Part shown: one piece after another, positions 7,926 to 41,482 of the stretch
Layout of the letters: each line of letters starts with the position of its first letter
Position numbering within the stretch: the first letter of the stretch is position 1
NCBI GenBank assembly: GCA_949948895.1
Contig: CATLHE010000005.1
Span: forward strand, 2,306 to 66,305
Direction: 5' to 3'
DNA from: an uncultured Christensenella sp.
GTDB taxonomy: Bacteria; Bacillota; Clostridia; Christensenellales; Pumilibacteraceae
DNA length: 64,000 bases
Made by a program: the position numbers and the translations under genes
The notes under the pieces: generated by a model
What the model saw: the letters and a program-made list of their open reading frames with translations, nothing else
The model's database searches: none
Told to the model about the DNA's origin: nothing

Positions 7926-8522
7926 ATGGAGAACAAGCTCGGGATAACCGATGAAAAAACACTCGCCGCCGCGGAAGAGCGGATAGAAAAGAAACGCGCG
8001 AAAGAGCTTTTCGATTCGGGTCGGCTCGCGAAAATGCCCGTCGGCACGTACGCGGGGCTTAAAGAGATACATATAGCGCTGTTCGGTGACGTGTACGACT
8101 TTGCCGGCGAGCTTCGGACTGTCAATATCGGAAAGGGCAGTATGCGGTTTGCGCCCGCGGAATCGCTCGACAGCGCTATCAAGTTTGTGGACATCATGCC
8201 GCACGGCAGTTTTGACGAGATCATGGACAAGTTCATACAAATGAACAGCGTCCACCCGTTCCGTAAAGGCAACGGCAGAGCGATGCGGATTTGGCTGGAC
8301 GTCATGTTCGCAGAAGCGTTCGGCAAGCTCGTCGATTGGCGCACGGTCAATAAGGACGCGTACAATATAGCAATGGAGCACTGCTCGCTCGATAAGCGCG
8401 GCATTGTCGCGATCATCTCGGGCTCGCTCACCGACAAGGTCGGGCGCTCGATGTTCCTGAACGGTATCGACGCGAGCTTTGCGCTCGAAGGTCTGTGCTC
8501 GTACAGAACGGAAGATCTGTAG
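7926..8522 (+). CDS. Fic-domain protein, class III type (C-terminal auto-inhibitory helix)
   Basis: HPFRKGNGRAMR (Fic motif with K at the D/E position); C-terminal SFALEG matches (S/T)xxxE(G/N). Confidence 0.85.
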   Translation: MENKLGITDEKTLAAAEERIEKKRAKELFDSGRLAKMPVGTYAGLKEIHIALFGDVYDFAGELRTVNIGKGSMRFAPAESLDSAIKFVDIMPHGSFDEIMDKFIQMNSVHPFRKGNGRAMRIWLDVMFAEAFGKLVDWRTVNKDAYNIAMEHCSLDKRGIVAIISGSLTDKVGRSMFLNGIDASFALEGLCSYRTEDL

Positions 8523-8529
8523 CCAAGCC

Positions 8530-8735
8530 TTACGCTTGACCGCCTGTCGTGTGTTTGCATGGATGATTGATTTTGCATAGCACCCGAACAAACACGGTTT
8601 GGATTTTTGTCGTGTGCCAACCAAATGTTGGACGATTGTCGTGTGTAGGCTTTTGTGTTAATTTATTGTTTCACCCGAATAAAGCGTTAATGTTTATAAA
8701 CCGTTCGTAGGGCGCGACAATCTCGGCGCCCAGTT
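8530..8735. repeat. Intergenic REP-like cluster (families A and C)
   Basis: Three TGTCGTG units with CCAA hairpins; GTAGGGCGC..GCGCCC at about 8706-8731. Confidence 0.7.
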
Positions 8736-9353
8736 GCATTTAGTTCCGCAATTATTCTGGTGTAACAATAAATAAATCACCTACGTAAATACATAACAAC
8801 ATCGATTTGTAATCGCAAGCTATGCTGAGCGTACCATTAAATAAATGATTTATGCACACGCTATAAACGTTAAACTTCTATTAAATAGTGGTCGATTGAG
8901 AAAATCAGTGTATGCTAATATCACGTGATATTGTATTTATAATCTTGATATGTATCTATAGTTTAGCACAAAGTATTAATTAGGTGCATCCGCTTGCCTT
9001 GTTTTTCTTTTTTCTCATAGGCTTAGTGTGACCATCGTCGTCACGACACAGCGCACGCATGCCCCTTTCTTATGGGACTATCTTAATATTTAAAATTTTG
9101 TTTTCAAACTATAAAAAAAATAAAAGTTGACAAAAAATATGTGTTATTTTTATGTGTTTCTTCTTATGATTTAGTGAGTGTTTACAAAAGCCCATGGTAA
9201 AAGTGGTATTTTAATGAATTTCACTTATAGATAAAATAATGATTAAGAATTATTACAATACTTTAATTTATTAAATTTAATATTACTATGCATATGGATA
9301 ATATGTTGAAAAAAATTGAAATTTCTGATATAATCATTTTAAAAGGAGCTGTT

Positions 9354-9989
9354 ATGGATTTTTTAATGTCTATTATTACAGGAATAGTATCTTCTGTAAT
9401 TGTGTCTTGTTTTATTTGGATTGGTCAAAAGATTATTAGAACTAGATATTATTCTGACATTGCTAGAGTGTATAATACTAAAGAGAGTGGGTTTAAAGCA
9501 ATCAATAATGATATGAGACAAGCATCTGAAGTGAAGACCCTCGCAGTGCGTGGACAATCGCTAATTGACAAAAATGCTTTTAGTAATTTATGGGATACTG
9601 AGAACTGTAATCGCAAAATTGAAATTATTATCTCTGATATAGACAATCAAAAGCTTATATCACAGCGTAGCAAAGCAAATTGTATAGGTGAGGATACGTA
9701 TAAAAAAGGTATAGAGATAGTTCTTAAAGAATTAACGACAAAACAGCAAATCTATCAAAATCTAACACTCCTTACTCATACAACTGACTTGTCATTTAAG
9801 CTTTTTATCATGGATCATTGCATGTATGTTTTGTATTATCAAAACAATAAGAATGTTAACAAATCTAGAATAGTTAAATATAAAAGCGATACAGGGGCTT
9901 ATATGGCTTTTCAACATTATTACGATAGCATAAAGTCTAATAGCAGCATAAAAATCTATAATACTTTATTGGGTGTTAAAAATGGATAA
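9354..9989 (+). CDS. N-terminal TM helix + PLD-like fold (DUF5919-like) protein
   Basis: SD AAGGAG before ATG 9354 (preferred to the track start 9288); hydrophobic first ~25 aa; IEIIISD..N...QR, SFKLFIMD, YV.YY, AF..YYD.I pattern resembles DUF5919. Confidence 0.55.
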   Translation: MDFLMSIITGIVSSVIVSCFIWIGQKIIRTRYYSDIARVYNTKESGFKAINNDMRQASEVKTLAVRGQSLIDKNAFSNLWDTENCNRKIEIIISDIDNQKLISQRSKANCIGEDTYKKGIEIVLKELTTKQQIYQNLTLLTHTTDLSFKLFIMDHCMYVLYYQNNKNVNKSRIVKYKSDTGAYMAFQHYYDSIKSNSSIKIYNTLLGVKNG

Positions 9990-11097
9990 TTTTTTGTCTG
10001 GAATTATACAATTAGGAAATAGAGTAAATAGTAAAGATGATATACTGGTTTTAAATGATTATTGGTTTAACAATATTCATACGCTAAAATCCGTATTACC
10101 TAAGTGTATAATATCACCCTACGAATATGCATTTAGTCATATTCCCGCATTCATCCAAATGCTAGGGATACCGTTTATATTTTTAAACATAGGTGAAATT
10201 AAGCAATTAAAAGCTGGAGAATACGTGAGTATAGATTTTAATAATAATTCTGTAGGCTCTAATTCGCATTACGATAGTTTTTATAACGATAAAATGCTTT
10301 TTGAAAACGGGGTTTGTTTTTATTCATCAATTAAAGGTCAAAAAATAGATAGTTATCTCATTAGTCAGTCGTCTGGAGTGGGTTTAGTTTCAACAGAGTT
10401 TTTGTTTTATAAATCAAAGAATATTTCAAAAAGGCATCAATTTAATGTGCTCAGTAATCTTTGCAAGCAAAATCCAACATTGGATTATACAATAAGATTA
10501 TTTGATATTTGTGTGGATAAAATCCCTGTTTGGGCACAACAAAAATATTCAAACCACAAGTGTAATATCGGCAGGGGTGTCAATTTAGGTTCTACCGACA
10601 GCGAAAAAAATTTGTTTAATCAATTGTCTGTTATCAAAGAATTATCAAAAAAATATAAGATTTCAGTACTTGTCCCATATTTGACTGACATAGATGAAAT
10701 AATGAAAATTAAAATGTTTTTACAGCAGAATTTTTGTAATAATGTTAGACTTGGTGCTATGATAGAGTCAGTCGATATTTTGCCGATCATTAAAGAGTTG
10801 AATAAAATTGTTGATTTTTATTCTTTAGGAACAAATGACATTGTCCAATCATTTTTTAAAATCGATAGGACAAAACCTATTTGTTTCAATAAAGTGGATT
10901 TAAAAAATAAAGAATTTCGATTTCTTTTACTTGAAATTTTGACTCTGGTCCAGAATAAAAGTATAAGAGTTTGCGGACAACTTCCTGTAATGCCAGGAAT
11001 GTTATCCGCTATGATTGAAATCGGATACAAGCAATTTACAGTTAATCCATACTGGATAAAATATTTAAAAGCTGTTGCGTTTAAATGCATAATTTAA
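9982..11097 (+). CDS. Minimal PTS enzyme-I/PEP-utiliser-like protein (His swivel + PEP-binding TIM barrel)
   Basis: FSHIPAFIQMLGIP..GEYVSID (mobile His domain); GVGLVSTEFL, TIRLFDICVDK, GAMIES, FYSLGTNDIVQSFFKIDR, VCGQ; ATG 9982 overlaps the upstream stop by 8 nt. Confidence 0.8.
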   Translation: MDNFLSGIIQLGNRVNSKDDILVLNDYWFNNIHTLKSVLPKCIISPYEYAFSHIPAFIQMLGIPFIFLNIGEIKQLKAGEYVSIDFNNNSVGSNSHYDSFYNDKMLFENGVCFYSSIKGQKIDSYLISQSSGVGLVSTEFLFYKSKNISKRHQFNVLSNLCKQNPTLDYTIRLFDICVDKIPVWAQQKYSNHKCNIGRGVNLGSTDSEKNLFNQLSVIKELSKKYKISVLVPYLTDIDEIMKIKMFLQQNFCNNVRLGAMIESVDILPIIKELNKIVDFYSLGTNDIVQSFFKIDRTKPICFNKVDLKNKEFRFLLLEILTLVQNKSIRVCGQLPVMPGMLSAMIEIGYKQFTVNPYWIKYLKAVAFKCII

Positions 11098-11272
11098 AAT
11101 CGATGTCGATTATTGACGACAGAATACGAAACAATTCGCGATCCGTATGAATGTGTGTGGTTGATAAAAACGGTCAAGGTATATCCTATATATCCCGCTG
11201 TATTTCGCCAAACTTGACAGTTATATCGTTTTATGATATATTGTTTTTAATGTTTCAAGGAATAGCGGCTTT

Positions 11273-12358
11273 ATGAAAAGAGTTTTTATAACGCTGGTAA
11301 CGGCGTGCGCGTTGATGTGCGCGCTCATAACGGGATTGACTGCTTGCGGTTTGCACGAGCACGATTTTACCGCCGAGAAAGCGCTCGACAAATATAAAGT
11401 GAGCGATGCCGACTGTTTGCACAGAGCCGTGTATTATAAATCGTGCGCCGAATGCGGCGAGAAAGGTACCGAAACGTTTGAATCGGGCGGGTATAAGCAC
11501 GATTTCGGCGGCGGAGTGACTTGCGTTAAGTGCTCTTACCATAAGCCGAGCGATGGCTTGGAATACGTGAGAAATTTGGGCATTACCGGTGTAAAGAGCA
11601 AGGGCGCATGTACGGATACCGATATTTATATCGCAGACACATACGACGGACAGCCCGTGACGGACATTTTTGAATACGCGTTCAGCGGGTGCAGCAGTAT
11701 AACCGACGTGACGATACCCAATAGTGTGACCTCTATTGATCGCTATGCTTTCAACGGTTGCGATTTGATGACGAGTATAGCAATACCCGAAAGCGTGACT
11801 TGGATCGGGTGGAATGCGTTTAGCGGTTGCACGTCGTTGACAGAAATTACGATACCTAGCGGCGTGTGGAATATTCGTGAACAGACTTTCAGCGGTTGCA
11901 CGTCGCTGACTGGCGTAACGTTACCCGATGGCTTGGCGACCATCGAAGCGCGAGCGTTTTCCGGTTGCAGTAGTTTGTCCGACGTGAATATTCCCGACGA
12001 CGTGACTGTTTTGCAATATGCTTTTGCGGACTGCTCCGCGCTTACGAGCATAAAGTTTCCAAACGGAACGACGTACATTGCGGAGGGCACGTTCTCGGGG
12101 TGTGCGGCGCTGACTGACGTAACGATACCTAAAAGCGTTAGGAAGATCGGGAGTGATGCGTTTGCCCATTGCGTGTCGTTGAGTGACGTGATAATACCCG
12201 ACAGCGTAGAGTATATCGGAAGTGAAGCGTTTTTGGATTGCGACGCGCTTACGATATACTGCGAGGCGAAAGAACAGCCGAGCGGTTGGAGCTCCCGGTG
12301 GAACGCTTCCCACTGTCGCGTAGTCTGGGGTTATACCGACGGCGAAGACTCTGACTGA
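11273..12358 (+). CDS. BspA-type leucine-rich-repeat surface lipoprotein
   Basis: Lipobox LTAC; repeated AFSGC.SL..V.IP..V..I units (LRR_5). Confidence 0.9.
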   Translation: MKRVFITLVTACALMCALITGLTACGLHEHDFTAEKALDKYKVSDADCLHRAVYYKSCAECGEKGTETFESGGYKHDFGGGVTCVKCSYHKPSDGLEYVRNLGITGVKSKGACTDTDIYIADTYDGQPVTDIFEYAFSGCSSITDVTIPNSVTSIDRYAFNGCDLMTSIAIPESVTWIGWNAFSGCTSLTEITIPSGVWNIREQTFSGCTSLTGVTLPDGLATIEARAFSGCSSLSDVNIPDDVTVLQYAFADCSALTSIKFPNGTTYIAEGTFSGCAALTDVTIPKSVRKIGSDAFAHCVSLSDVIIPDSVEYIGSEAFLDCDALTIYCEAKEQPSGWSSRWNASHCRVVWGYTDGEDSD

Positions 12359-38881: not shown

Positions 38882-39088
38882 TCAAAAATCGGAAGTGCCG
38901 AGCAGATAGTCGCATGACACGTCGAAGATCTTGCTTATCATAACAACGGTAGACAGATTCGGCTCGCCGGCGTTGTTTTCGTAGCGAGTATATGACTGTT
39001 GCCGAATGTTCAGCTTGTCCGCCATTTGTTGCTGCGTGTAGCCCGCCGCTATGCGCAGTTCTTTTAAACGTTTAGAAAAAACTTCCAT
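38882..39088 (-). CDS. XRE-family HTH regulator
   Basis: RLKELR..GYTQQQMADKLNI.QQSY.RYE....EP.L. Confidence 0.9.
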   Translation of the reverse strand: MEVFSKRLKELRIAAGYTQQQMADKLNIRQQSYTRYENNAGEPNLSTVVMISKIFDVSCDYLLGTSDF

Positions 39089-39105
39089 TTTCGACTCGAT
39101 TGTGT

Positions 39106-39160
39106 TTGCATTATACAGCGAATTGCTGTATAATATTTTGCGTACAGCAAAATGCTGTTA
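39106..39160. promoter_or_regulatory. Divergent promoters with two ACAGC-N5-GCTGT operators
   Basis: TTATACAGCGAATTGCTGTATAA (39111-33) and ACAGCAAAATGCTGT (39144-58); TTGCAT-17-TATAAT on the + strand. Confidence 0.75.
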
Positions 39161-39182: not shown

Positions 39183-40748
39183 ATGAAAAAAATCTATAAG
39201 CGTATTGTATGTTTTACTGCGGCGGCGGTTCTCTCGTCAGTCGCTTTTACCGCGTGCGGCAACGGCAACGGTTCGTCGGAGCCCCAGCCCGATTACAATA
39301 ATATAGTTATAAGCGGATTAGAGGACGTTTTTATCGATAAGGATACCGAGACGTTCGATATCATGGACGGCGTGACTGCGACTTATAAATACGAAAACGG
39401 CAAAGAAGCATCGCTTGGCGACGAGCTTCGCGTCGTACTGCCCGAGCATGCCTCGGTCGACGACGGCAGGGTAACGTTCGACGCGTGCGGCGACTATGAA
39501 ATAAGCTATTACGTAAACGACGCGAAAGGGAATAATACCGTAGCAAAGCGGAGCGTCAAAGTTCGCAATATTTACAACTGTTATTGGATGTGCGCGACGC
39601 TGCCCGTACTGTACTGCGCGCTCGATATTGTTTCCAACGATTACAAGTCGATGCTGACTTTTACGCGCGCCGATACGCTGAACATAGACGAGCTGGACGA
39701 CGACAGGTTTCTATATAAGATAAACGGTGCGTCCAATGCCGATCTGCGCGAGGCGTGGCGCATGACGGCGCGCATCGCTTACGAGGACGAATGGAGCTAT
39801 TTCAGGCTGTTCATGACCGACGTTTACAGTCAAAGCGAAGTAATGTCCATGATGCGGTATAAGATCCCGAGTTCGCGTTACGAGGTCAAGCTCGTGTCCG
39901 ACGGCGGGTTTACGTACGGGTCGGCGTTTTCCGCGTACCGCGGCGAAAACACGTATTCGGCTTGGCAAGCCAATAAGAAGATCTACGATGCGGTGATCGA
40001 TAAAGCGTTGAGAAACGAGTTCACCGTCGTCGACGGCGATACGGGCAACGCGTATATAGAATATGGCGGCAAAAAGTTCGGCACGGACGTTGCGGACGGG
40101 AGTCTTGCGCGAATGGGTATAATGGCGGCTCAGCGCGACAACGTCGAGCTGTGGTGCAATTATCCAGAAACGCTCGTAAGCGCCGATCCGAAAGTTATGG
40201 CGGAAGTGAAAAAGGCGCACATGCCCAAAATGTCGCCTAAGGACATGTATGCGAATTTGACCGACGCGCAAAAAGAAAAGTTTTTGGCGCTGTGCAATTT
40301 TGACAAAGCCGAATTCGACGAGCAGTACTTTGCAGAGGAAGGGAAGTATTTGATAATCACAGGCACCAACGGCTTTACGGGCTCGCTCACCGATGCGGAG
40401 TTTGCCGACGTTTTGAGCCGCATTATCGAAGACTACGACGGATACAATATTTTATACAAACCGCATCCGAAAGCCTTGGAGCCTACCGATTCGATGCCGC
40501 AGACGGCGGCGGTCATCGCCGACAATAATATCAAAATTTTGCCGGGACGGTTGCCCATGGAGATAATTTCGTGGGTGTACGGTGACGTCGAGCTCGGCGG
40601 GTTCGATTCGTCGCTGTATATGGCGGTACCGCAGGGCAATACCAAGTTCTTTATTTGTAACGGTAAAGACGCACTTTCGGAAATATCCAAACAGCTCTAT
40701 AACGACGGCGCGTTCGGCTCGCCCGAGTTTTATTGGAAAGCAGCATAA
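39183..40748 (+). CDS. Lipoprotein: Ig-like domain + GT80 sialyltransferase-like domain
   Basis: Lipobox FTAC; Ig-like GVTA...G.Y.I.Y.V.D..GN; ATLP, VSDGG, LYKPHP, LPMEII, GGFDSSLY resemble GT80 ASLP, YDDGS, FKGHP, IPFEVL, AGIASSLY. Confidence 0.65.
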   Translation: MKKIYKRIVCFTAAAVLSSVAFTACGNGNGSSEPQPDYNNIVISGLEDVFIDKDTETFDIMDGVTATYKYENGKEASLGDELRVVLPEHASVDDGRVTFDACGDYEISYYVNDAKGNNTVAKRSVKVRNIYNCYWMCATLPVLYCALDIVSNDYKSMLTFTRADTLNIDELDDDRFLYKINGASNADLREAWRMTARIAYEDEWSYFRLFMTDVYSQSEVMSMMRYKIPSSRYEVKLVSDGGFTYGSAFSAYRGENTYSAWQANKKIYDAVIDKALRNEFTVVDGDTGNAYIEYGGKKFGTDVADGSLARMGIMAAQRDNVELWCNYPETLVSADPKVMAEVKKAHMPKMSPKDMYANLTDAQKEKFLALCNFDKAEFDEQYFAEEGKYLIITGTNGFTGSLTDAEFADVLSRIIEDYDGYNILYKPHPKALEPTDSMPQTAAVIADNNIKILPGRLPMEIISWVYGDVELGGFDSSLYMAVPQGNTKFFICNGKDALSEISKQLYNDGAFGSPEFYWKAA

Positions 40749-40824
40749 GCCGATCAAAGAGTACGACCCTAAAACGACGGAACGGAATACGCCCGCTCCG
40801 TCGTTTTTTGGTTTTTAGTGAGTG

Positions 40825-41472
40825 CCCCGCAATCCGTCACGTCCTACGGAGACATGTCGATATGTTCCGCTCTTATTCGGGTGTTTTGTAAAACAAACCG
40901 CAAACGCCAATACACGACAGAAATCCAAGCTGTGCTTGGCAGCTGTCGTGTGTTTGCTTGATTGGTGGTTTGCGTTTCACCCGACAAATATCAAAATAGA
41001 ATATCCCATTATCGATACGTGTCATCCTGAGGCGAAGCCGAAGGATCTAGGGCGCAAGCCCGCACCAATCACAGATTGGATTTCTGTCGTGTGTGAGCGA
41101 TTTAGGTGGTTTTATGTAACACCCGAATAAATGCGGGGCATGGCGAATTATAACGTTTGTTTTATGTGTCGCGTGTGCGGCGGTTCGCCCGGATTCTTCG
41201 CCTACGGCTCAGAATGACAAGTCGGAAGTTGGCGTCTGTCGTGTGTTGGCGTGGTCGGGATAATGGCGACATACCCGAATAAAAACTAATAGTAGGGCGT
41301 GACGACTCGGCACGCCGTTGATTTTTGTACCGCTCTTTTTCGGGTGCAACACAAAAACAACATCAACGTACACACACGAGCATAATCCAAGCAGTGCTTG
41401 GTCGGGCATAACGCAAAACAAATCATATACGCAAATACACGACAATCGTCAAACATTTGGTTTGCACGACAG
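40825..41472. repeat. Composite REP-like cluster (families A, B, C)
   Basis: Same motifs as the other clusters; 40999-41062 is nearly identical to the 19037 and 25952 modules. Confidence 0.85.
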
Positions 41473-41482
41473 TTAAAAATAC

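Follow-up and report, generated by a model that had tools for sequence, protein, structure and literature searches.

Introduction

Leloir-type glycosyltransferases with a GT-B fold are expected where nucleotide sugars are found, that is, in the cytoplasm. In the sialyltransferases of family GT80 the signature motifs are YDDGS, FKGHP, and SS, with Asp serving as the base and His as the acid; the Ser-Ser pair sits on the phosphate of cytidine monophosphate (CMP), and a conserved Glu makes bidentate hydrogen bonds to ribose O2 and O3 (PMC7540698, PMC4202792). The sialidase and trans-sialidase activities of these enzymes, known in vitro, are reverse transfer through CMP-N-acetylneuraminic acid (CMP-Neu5Ac, also written CMP-NANA), and so require CMP (PMC7540698). 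Neisseria gonorrhoeae cannot make CMP-NANA, and its outer-membrane enzyme Lst uses that of the host (PMC4324315). This study deals with a stretch of 64,000 nucleotides (nt) from an uncultured Christensenella sp. (contig CATLHE010000005.1), referred to here as the window, and specifically with a gene at positions 39183..40748 of its forward strand, which is predicted to encode a surface lipoprotein with a GT80-like domain.

The central finding is that an exported family keeps the CMP-binding and catalytic residues of sialyltransferases in gut bacteria that, from their gene content, seem unable to make CMP-sialic acid or the CMP form of 3-deoxy-D-manno-octulosonic acid (CMP-Kdo). A literature search found no description of GT80-like enzymes in Firmicutes or of GT80 enzymes that are lipoproteins. 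An initial annotation of the gene had pointed to a lipobox, an immunoglobulin (Ig)-like domain, and the motifs ATLP, SDGG, KPHP, and SSLY in that order, and all of these were present in the open reading frame (ORF). It had missed two things that shape the interpretation below, namely that relatives in the same clade lie in rhamnose/Wzx polysaccharide clusters, and that alpha2,6-sialyltransferases of Photobacterium have the same architecture.

Results

Relationship to GT80 and other sialyltransferase families

The gene is a single unbroken ORF of 521 amino acids (aa) plus stop, and a search of NCBIfam with its product matched no family. As a single sequence, the protein scored below the Pfam gathering thresholds of both PF11477 (GT80; 17.4 bits against 25, E=0.0023, residues 419-508 only) and PF07388 (GT38; 19.4 bits against 23.3), and at the level of the family, 30 of 51 aligned members touched PF11477 (best E=3.2e-8) and 21 of the 51 touched PF07388. 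A phmmer search of the PDB gave E=1.3e-6 to the P. damselae sialyltransferase, across residues 348-502, and a profile built from 51 homologues reached 4R9V (E=1.4e-20), 2Z4T (2.9e-19), 2ZWI (2.8e-11), and PmST1 (7e-11). This profile aligned both GT-B lobes with GT80, and every motif met its GT80 counterpart: aTLP with ASLP, sDGt..Y with DDGS.EY, KPHP with KGHP, PmE with SFE, and GGfdSSLY with GGvASSLY. Because of these phmmer and profile values, obtained with the motifs in register, the resemblance to GT80 is far beyond chance.

Structure prediction gave a similar picture. The AlphaFold2 (AF2) model of the window protein, with a mean predicted local distance difference test (pLDDT) of 92.5 and a predicted template modelling score (pTM) of 0.86, has a GT-B fold, and its best 22 Foldseek matches in the PDB were all GT80 enzymes, with E between 4e-16 and 2.5e-9 and target-normalised TM-scores reaching 0.74. 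They were followed by the GT38 polysialyltransferase 5WCN (E=2e-6) and then by UDP-GlcNAc 2-epimerases. The two best, the Photobacterium alpha2,6 enzymes 4R83 and 2Z4T, also spanned the Ig-like domain. GT38 was not among the profile matches to the PDB at E<=0.01, while GT52 produced neither a Pfam match (PF07922-type) at E<=10 nor a structure in the top 50 Foldseek matches. The TagF-type cytidine diphosphate (CDP)-glycerol/ribitol phosphotransferases were likewise missing, both as PF04464 at E<=10 and among the top 50 fold matches.

Taken as a whole, the GT-B domain is almost certainly a genuine, if distant, homologue of the GT80 sialyltransferases. The sub-threshold PF11477 score, the comparable score to PF07388, and the contacts of family members with both models make the family a divergent sister group to GT80, inside the lineage of HP-motif sialyltransferases (GT80, GT38, and GT52), and not a plain member of GT80. 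The initial annotation was thus right about the fold and about GT80 as the nearest family by both profile and structure, and the comparison with PmST1 that it proposed gave a match of E about 1e-11; the hidden Markov model (HMM) for PM0188, which it had also named, was touched by many relatives but fell short of its cut-off with the window protein itself, as did the GT38 model. Neither of the outcomes that it had listed as refuting the idea, a missing GT-B fold or a lack of any HMM support, was observed.

Active-site residues and their conservation

Roles were assigned to residues of the window protein by mapping its sequence alignment onto GT80. D240, H428, E460, and S476/S477 aligned with D141, H311, E338, and S355/S356 of PmST1, and K426 with the Lys of FKGHP, so that Y-K426-P-H428-P429 stands opposite that motif. 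L-V-S-D240-G-G, when set against YDDGS, retains its Gly and its second Asp, which is the base, while Ser replaces the first Asp and Gly the final Ser. The spacings between motifs are 101 residues from T139 to D240, 188 from D240 to H428, and 48 from H428 to S476; the corresponding PmST1 distances are 170 (D141 to H311) and 44 (H311 to S355).

These positions are divided between two domains, both encoded on the forward strand. The N-terminal, acceptor-side Rossmann-like domain of the GT-B fold (39567..40223, delimited by profile alignment) holds A138-T-L-P141 (nt 39594-39605) and S239-D-G-G242 (nt 39897-39908), in which D240 is the putative catalytic base. The C-terminal, nucleotide-side domain (40224..40745), recognised through phmmer and profile alignments with 4r9v, 2z4t, 2zwi, and 2c84, holds K426-P-H-P429 (nt 40458-40469), E460 (codon at nt 40560-40562, placed by alignment), and S476-S-L-Y479 (nt 40608-40619).

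Across the 51-member alignment, K426, H428, P429, E460, S476, and S477 were invariant, as were T139 and G241, and D240 was kept in 42 of the 51. Over 231 members of the wider family, conservation was 95% for K426, 96% each for H428, P429, and E460, 88% for S476, and 97% for Ser or Thr at position 477, against 79% (182/231) for D240, with Glu there in a further 5%. Cys or Asn in place of D240 marks a subclade anchored by a transmembrane (TM) helix. Since the nucleotide-phosphate site is near-invariant and D240 is not, that site appears to be under stronger constraint than the base. There is very little doubt that the CMP-leaving-group site of GT80 is intact in the window protein, with Lys426, His428-Pro429 (the predicted acid), Glu460 (the predicted ribose clamp), and Ser476-Ser477 (predicted to hold the phosphate), and the same holds for Asp240 of the D-G motif, the putative general base.

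Protein layout and extracellular location

The N-terminus reads MKKIYKRIVCFTAAAVLSSVAFTA immediately before C25, which on inspection is a signal peptide (residues 1-24; 39183..39257, forward strand, lipobox Cys codon included) closing in the lipobox F-T-A-C25 (F22 to C25; codons at nt 39246-39257). The genome encodes the enzymes for lipoprotein maturation, Lgt (PF01790, 178 bits) and the signal peptidase II LspA (PF01252, 99.8 bits), and the host is a monoderm-type Clostridia member, in agreement with the earlier proposal of a surface lipoprotein in a Gram-positive-type bacterium. The product is very probably an exported lipoprotein, with a lipid anchor at Cys25, that faces outward from the monoderm membrane.

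Between the anchor and the catalytic part lies an Ig-like beta-sandwich domain (about residues 38-128; 39294..39566, forward strand). PF16403, a bacterial surface Ig-like domain of the DUF5011 type, scored 25.7 bits (E=1.2e-5) on the window protein, just under its cut-off of 27, and matched 25 of the 51 family members (best E=1.6e-12). In the AF2 model this part is all-beta with pLDDT >94; Foldseek matched it to Big_3 and Rib domains, and also aligned it with the Ig-like part of two sialyltransferases from Photobacterium, 4r83 and 2z4t.

Export is a property of the family and not only of the window protein. A lipobox Cys or an N-terminal TM/signal-anchor helix was present in 50 of the 51 aligned members, and longer, distant relatives were fused to SLH, cadherin-like, and Flg_new repeats and, in one case, to a type I dockerin, all of which are extracellular modules of Gram-positive bacteria. 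These anchors and fusions indicate that the catalytic domain is predicted to lie outside the membrane throughout the family.

Donor supply

The window genome (G000; 1.86 Mb, 94.5% complete) contained no NeuB (PF03102) and no CMP-ulosonate synthetase (PF02348) above the cut-off, the one weak match being an IspD/IspF fusion. In eight other genomes holding a member of the family, NeuB was likewise missing and the synthetase was absent or sub-threshold. A further 31 holder genomes yielded convincing synthetases (65-96 bits, ORFs of ~230 aa) in six distant ones only, which are Monoglobus, one Lachnospiraceae metagenome-assembled genome (MAG), and Brevinema, and whose family paralogues share 27-30% identity; none of these synthetases lay inside the ~6-kb flanks of the GT80-like gene. 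Genomes of the close clade gave PF02348 scores of 20-29 bits, mostly from ORFs of 375-400 aa, the size of IspDF, an identity verified for G000 only. NanE and GH33 sialidase (GH33/BNR_2) were absent from G000 and were found in one of nine holder genomes.

Judged by its gene content, then, the organism is predicted to be unable to make CMP-ulosonates. The absence of NeuB and synthetase indicates that it probably does not make sialic acid, and that of NanE and GH33 that it does not carry these genes for using it. The earlier remark that no neu, CMP-sialic acid, or capsule genes lie near the gene can be extended to the whole genome, where the neu search suggested at that time recovered neither NeuB nor a synthetase above the cut-off, and where Wzx, Bac_transf, and RmlC were missing as well. 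The accompanying idea, that the protein strips host sialoglycans, found no backing as a form of nutrition, and sialic acid foraging in general was left without support, as both NanE and GH33/BNR_2 are missing from G000.

Relatives inside polysaccharide clusters

Neighbouring genes were clustered over 41 family loci and annotated with Pfam. No universal operon partner emerged across the 41, and contexts ran from housekeeping genes to polysaccharide clusters. At loci L023, L024, L025, L031, L032, L033, L034, and L068, the family gene sits co-directionally in Wzx/Wzy rhamnose-type clusters, none of which carried neu genes. In L023, L024, and L068 the order is IspD-like, SDR, Wzx, RmlA, RmlB, RmlD, RmlC, and the family gene; in L032 it is IspD-like, SDR, Wzx, further genes, the family gene, RmlD, RmlC, and GNAT. 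L025 presents the family gene within a longer series (DegT, Bac_transf, GT2, GT4, LicD, family gene, GT2, membrane protein, IspD-like, SDR, Wzx, and RmlA), and L031 has Wzy_C, two GT2 genes, one gene of unknown type, the family gene, and DUF1919. The paired IspD-like cytidylyltransferase and SDR genes may be of the CDP-ribitol type. In L033 (4840-9151) and L034 (4930-8316), from Christensenellales-type MAGs of the mouse or animal gut, the gene lies between rmlB and rmlD of a deoxythymidine diphosphate (dTDP)-rhamnose operon, in the order RmlA, RmlB, family gene, (GT2,) RmlD, RmlC. In L034 the intergenic distance is zero on both sides, to rmlB and to rmlD, which implies that the gene is co-translated with the genes for the rhamnose precursor.

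In a maximum-likelihood (ML) tree of the catalytic domain, the window protein fell into a clade of 18 members with support of 100/100. Eight of the 17 other members are cluster-embedded, including the earliest-branching lineages, so the stand-alone position of the gene in the window looks derived. The embedding of its clade relatives in rhamnose/Wzx clusters also points to a surface glycan of the cell itself as the acceptor.

Size, hosts, and distribution of the family

At 50% identity, an exhaustive profile search recovered 888 representatives under a cut-off of E<=1e-3, of which 201 reached E<=1e-30. A word-indexed search gave 96 clusters, with source names limited to 'hypothetical', 'DUF5011 domain-containing', and 'immunoglobulin-like domain-containing'. 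All 39 loci from named genomes came from gut or host-associated MAGs or isolates. Holders include mouse 'Christensenella'/Borkfalkiaceae, Pumilibacter muris, rabbit Monoglobus, and members from Hadza human gut and chicken, as well as termite sources, Anaeroplasmataceae, Coprovivens, and one Brevinema, and Haploplasma axanthum also carries a member. The named relatives of the window protein belong to Christensenellaceae, Borkfalkiaceae, and Pumilibacter.

Within the genus of the window organism the gene is accessory, with a full-length or near-full-length copy in about 4 of 30 other species. These copies share <=61% identity with it, and none is syntenic within the flanks examined; the best of them (61%) has no trxB, XRE, or rpsL gene in its ~1.5-kb flanks. 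The closest homologue overall, 79% identical, also stands alone and adjoins rpsR.

Several relatives showed features of their own. At L014 (G043:C17:22677-24098), from the same order, the gene carries an in-frame TAA stop, possibly the mark of a pseudogene or of an assembly error. At L052, L054, and L056, from Monoglobus and a related Clostridia MAG, two convergent paralogues of ~780-1100 aa flank a gene for a PgsA-like CDP-alcohol phosphatidyltransferase, and the genomes have genuine CMP-ulosonate synthetases elsewhere. At L038-L041 and L045, from AT-rich uncultured Clostridium/Clostridia MAGs, the TM-anchored Cys/Asn subclade adjoins genes for BspA-type leucine-rich repeat (LRR) surface proteins whose N-terminus is prepilin-like, and in L038 the two kinds of gene alternate in tandem.

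Local context and control in the window

Upstream of the lipoprotein gene and divergent from it is a gene for an XRE-family helix-turn-helix (HTH) regulator of 68 aa (38882..39088, reverse strand; HTH_3 PF01381, 60.3 bits, E=1.8e-16). The 94 bp between the two genes include a shared control region (39105..39158, assigned to neither strand), recognised by promoter scan and inverted repeats. Here a sigma-70-like promoter, TTTGCA-18-TATAAT (39105-39134), is overlapped by a perfect palindrome, ATTATACAGC-N5-GCTGTATAAT (39110-39134), which contains the TATAAT box, and a second palindrome, ACAGC-N5-GCTGT (39144-39158), follows 13 nt downstream. The palindromes look like operators, to which the XRE protein would presumably bind, and the arrangement resembles a small repressor-operator switch. 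An intrinsic terminator with an 11-bp G+C-rich stem and a T-run (40771..40815, forward strand; RNA fold -27.3 kcal/mol, z=-3.06) closes the gene, which is in all probability a monocistronic unit with a terminator of its own.

On its upstream side the gene is flanked by nrdD and trxB, and on its downstream side by rpsL, rpsG, fusA, and tuf. Recent horizontal acquisition left no signal in composition, the G+C content (GC) of the gene being 0.512 and that of the genome 0.511. In the ~750 bp that separate the terminator of the lipoprotein gene from the promoter of rpsL (40820-41480), several short hairpins stand by a CACGACA-like tag (CCAAGC-N3-GCTTGG at 40925-40939, CCAATC-N3-GATTGG at 41065-41079, and CCAAGC-agt-GCTTGG at ~41388-41403) and look like a dispersed intergenic repeat family. 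Elsewhere in the window, positions 8001-12000 form a low-GC segment (0.37-0.38, compared with ~0.52 for the window), possibly a foreign island.

Discussion

This study focused on what a sialyltransferase-like domain might do on the outer face of a gut bacterium that seems unable to supply it with a conventional donor. The reading favoured here, to which we assign a probability of roughly 40%, is that the protein would act at the cell surface as an inverting transferase, taking an ulosonic sugar from an exogenous CMP-linked donor and adding it as a cap to a surface glycan. Asp240 would deprotonate a hydroxyl of the surface glycan, which in many clade members would be the rhamnose-type wall polysaccharide specified by the gene's own cluster. 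The target of this hydroxyl would be the anomeric carbon of an ulosonic sugar of the sialic-acid type, bound as its diester with cytidine monophosphate, while His428 and Ser476/477 would stabilise the departing CMP phosphate. The donor would have to be exogenous because the cell appears to have no CMP-ulosonate synthesis and the enzyme is predicted to lie outside it. It could be CMP-sialic acid scavenged from the host, as with the surface Lst of N. gonorrhoeae, or CMP-sialic acid might arise by reverse transfer as a transient product on the enzyme, with CMP and host sialosides as the starting material. In either case, the outcome would be that the bacterium's own surface glycans are capped with a host-like sugar.

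Several points weigh against this proposal. Outside host cells CMP-Neu5Ac is both rare and unstable, and it may be missing from the gut lumen. Some distant members of the family come from termite guts, where sialic acid is scarce. The dockerin and SLH fusions of distant relatives would be more usual in enzymes for breaking down exogenous polysaccharides. RmlC, Wzx, and Bac_transf are absent from the window genome by tblastn and custom HMMs, so the acceptor in the window organism must differ from the rhamnose/Wzx polysaccharide of its relatives. As for the enzyme, the window protein falls under the Pfam cut-off for GT80, and its alignment to GT80 is weak over the N-lobe (domain E 0.001-0.035), the part that determines specificity for sugar and acceptor. 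The base Asp is replaced by Cys or Asn in about 12% of the wider family (231 members). Finally, the residue after D-G is Gly242 here and Thr or Ser in most of the family, and in GT80 this residue lies close to the sialic acid (S150 in 2ZWI) (PMC7540698).

If cytidine is not part of the donor, the same residues could serve another phosphodiester. The protein may then be an extracytoplasmic transferase for wall polysaccharide that uses a non-nucleotide donor, either a polyprenyl-monophosphate sugar or a teichoic-acid-like sugar-phosphate-alditol (sugar-O-P-O-R, with R being undecaprenyl or ribitol), in which Ser476/477 and His428 would hold the phosphate and Glu460 the diol. We regard this as possible but rather unlikely. 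To our knowledge, the only glycosyl donors known outside the monoderm membrane are polyprenyl-phosphate-linked, which suits an enzyme tethered at the membrane surface in a cell with no supply of CMP-ulosonates, and the Wzx/Wzy clusters of relatives, several of which carry IspD-like plus SDR genes and a LicD phosphotransferase, imply polymers that contain phosphodiesters. However, a lipid carrier leaves the near-invariant Lys and Glu, which in GT80 contact the CMP nucleoside, unexplained, and we know of no precedent for a GT-B enzyme with a polyprenyl-phosphate donor. Nor was a GtrB/GtrA-type pair of undecaprenyl-phosphate (Und-P)-sugar synthase and flippase recognised beside the gene, where GT2 neighbours are only generically annotated, and the window genome has no such polysaccharide cluster.

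An absent donor pathway would also be accounted for if there were no net transfer at all, and the protein, on a glycosyltransferase scaffold, worked outside the cell as a hydrolase or processing enzyme to trim, free, or remodel polysaccharide of the cell surface, the diet, or the host, for example as a glycanase that cleaves ulosonate or phosphodiester linkages. Polysaccharide clusters often carry a dedicated glycanase, and the family is extracellular throughout, with dockerin/SLH fusions of the kind typical of secreted carbohydrate-active hydrolases. GT80 enzymes themselves have sialidase and CMP-Neu5Ac hydrolase side activities, but their sialidase works by reverse transfer with hydrolysis as the next step, and depends on CMP (PMC7540698). 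With NanE and GH33 missing there is no sign that sialic acid is used by that route, and strict conservation of the whole nucleotide-phosphate site would not be expected in a simple hydrolase; such a role seems improbable.

The Ig-like stalk and surface anchor would also fit a non-catalytic binder: either a lectin or adhesin that recognises glycans bearing sialic acid or phosphate, or a lipoprotein that binds nucleotides and retains the GT80 pocket for that purpose only. The gene is accessory and unevenly distributed (in about 4 of 30 other species of the genus), it is controlled by what looks like its own XRE-type switch, and no partner enzyme adjoins it in the window, all of which is in keeping with this. 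We nevertheless consider a binder very improbable, because the catalytic acid and base are conserved and not binding residues alone, relatives are embedded in biosynthetic operons, and no ABC transporter adjoins the gene in the window, with one nearby in only two or three relatives. Finally, a conventional sialyltransferase, or a transferase for Kdo or another ulosonate, working on a CMP-sugar made by the cell would agree with the GT80-like fold and motifs but is contradicted by the data to the point of being hardly credible, given that an endogenous donor was ruled out by the absence of NeuB and synthetase from the 94.5%-complete genome and from eight other holders, that synthetases, where present in distant holders, are unlinked to the gene, and that the protein is exported.

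A bolder view of the family as a whole, which we consider doubtful, is that it would represent a large, always-extracellular group of GT-B 'Leloir-type' enzymes operating without a nucleotide sugar made by the cell. Its members could act as surface trans-sialidases with CMP as a quasi-cofactor, in which case they would take sialic acid off host glycans and pass it to the wall polysaccharide of the bacterium itself, or cytidine could have been swapped for a lipid or alditol carrier, which would make them a new class of extracytoplasmic polysaccharide-decorating transferases alongside the GT-C enzymes.

If the enzyme does draw on host material to sialylate the wall polysaccharide of its own cell, it would give a commensal the counterpart of the molecular mimicry practised by gonococci, and such host-derived sialylation would be relevant to the immune tolerance of gut Clostridia. 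If another donor is used, it would reveal a new way of decorating Gram-positive surface polysaccharides. In practical terms, the protein is a defined, soluble, and expressible target for biochemistry, possibly a source of tools for chemoenzymatic sialylation, and the polysaccharide-cluster context supplies a concrete candidate acceptor.

Comparison with known systems

The closest described enzymes are the GT80 alpha2,6-sialyltransferase of Photobacterium sp. JT-ISH-224 (2Z4T) and that of P. damselae 0160 (4R83/4R9V), which share the three-part architecture of the window protein. The deposited sequence of 2Z4T begins with a signal peptide ending in the lipobox 'LLTAC', followed by an Ig-like domain and then the GT-B part. 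These Photobacterium enzymes are the best matches to the window family by profile (E=1.4e-20 and 2.9e-19) and by fold (E=4e-16 and 7e-16), and their ASLP, D-G-S..Y, K-x-HP, ribose-clamp Glu, and GG..SSLY all align with it. Identity to the window protein is only 13-16%, however, with the first acid of DDG replaced by Ser and 'KGHP' by 'KPHP'. The hosts also differ, being diderm marine gamma-proteobacteria in the one case and, in the other, a monoderm gut member of the Clostridia without a CMP-sialic acid pathway.

The GT38 polysialyltransferases (PF07388; 5WCN) are cytoplasmic-face capsule polymerases encoded in neu/kps clusters. Their resemblance by fold is much weaker than that of GT80, although they share the D/E-D/E-G and HP motifs (PMC4202792).

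PmST1 (PM0188; 2EX0, 2C84, 2IHZ), the multifunctional alpha2,3/2,6-sialyltransferase of Pasteurella multocida, matches by GT-B fold as described above, but its crystallised matches cover the GT-B part only and not the Ig-like domain, and its profile match (7e-11) is confined to the C-terminal lobe. Its organism uses activated sialic acid, for which the window genome has no route. The CMP-dependent sialidase and trans-sialidase activities of PmST1 are the model for one of the mechanisms proposed here (PMC7540698). Lst of N. gonorrhoeae (GT52) offers a functional analogy only, as a surface sialyltransferase that caps the cell's own glycan in an organism with no CMP-NANA of its own (PMC4324315); it belongs to another glycosyltransferase family, and is a diderm outer-membrane protein without an Ig-like domain.

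The combination of lipobox, Ig-like domain, and GT-B fold is therefore not new, since 2Z4T already shows it. What is new is its setting in monoderm gut Clostridia, the size of a clade whose members are uniformly extracellular, the consistent absence of a donor pathway, and the embedding of relatives in rhamnose/Wzx clusters.

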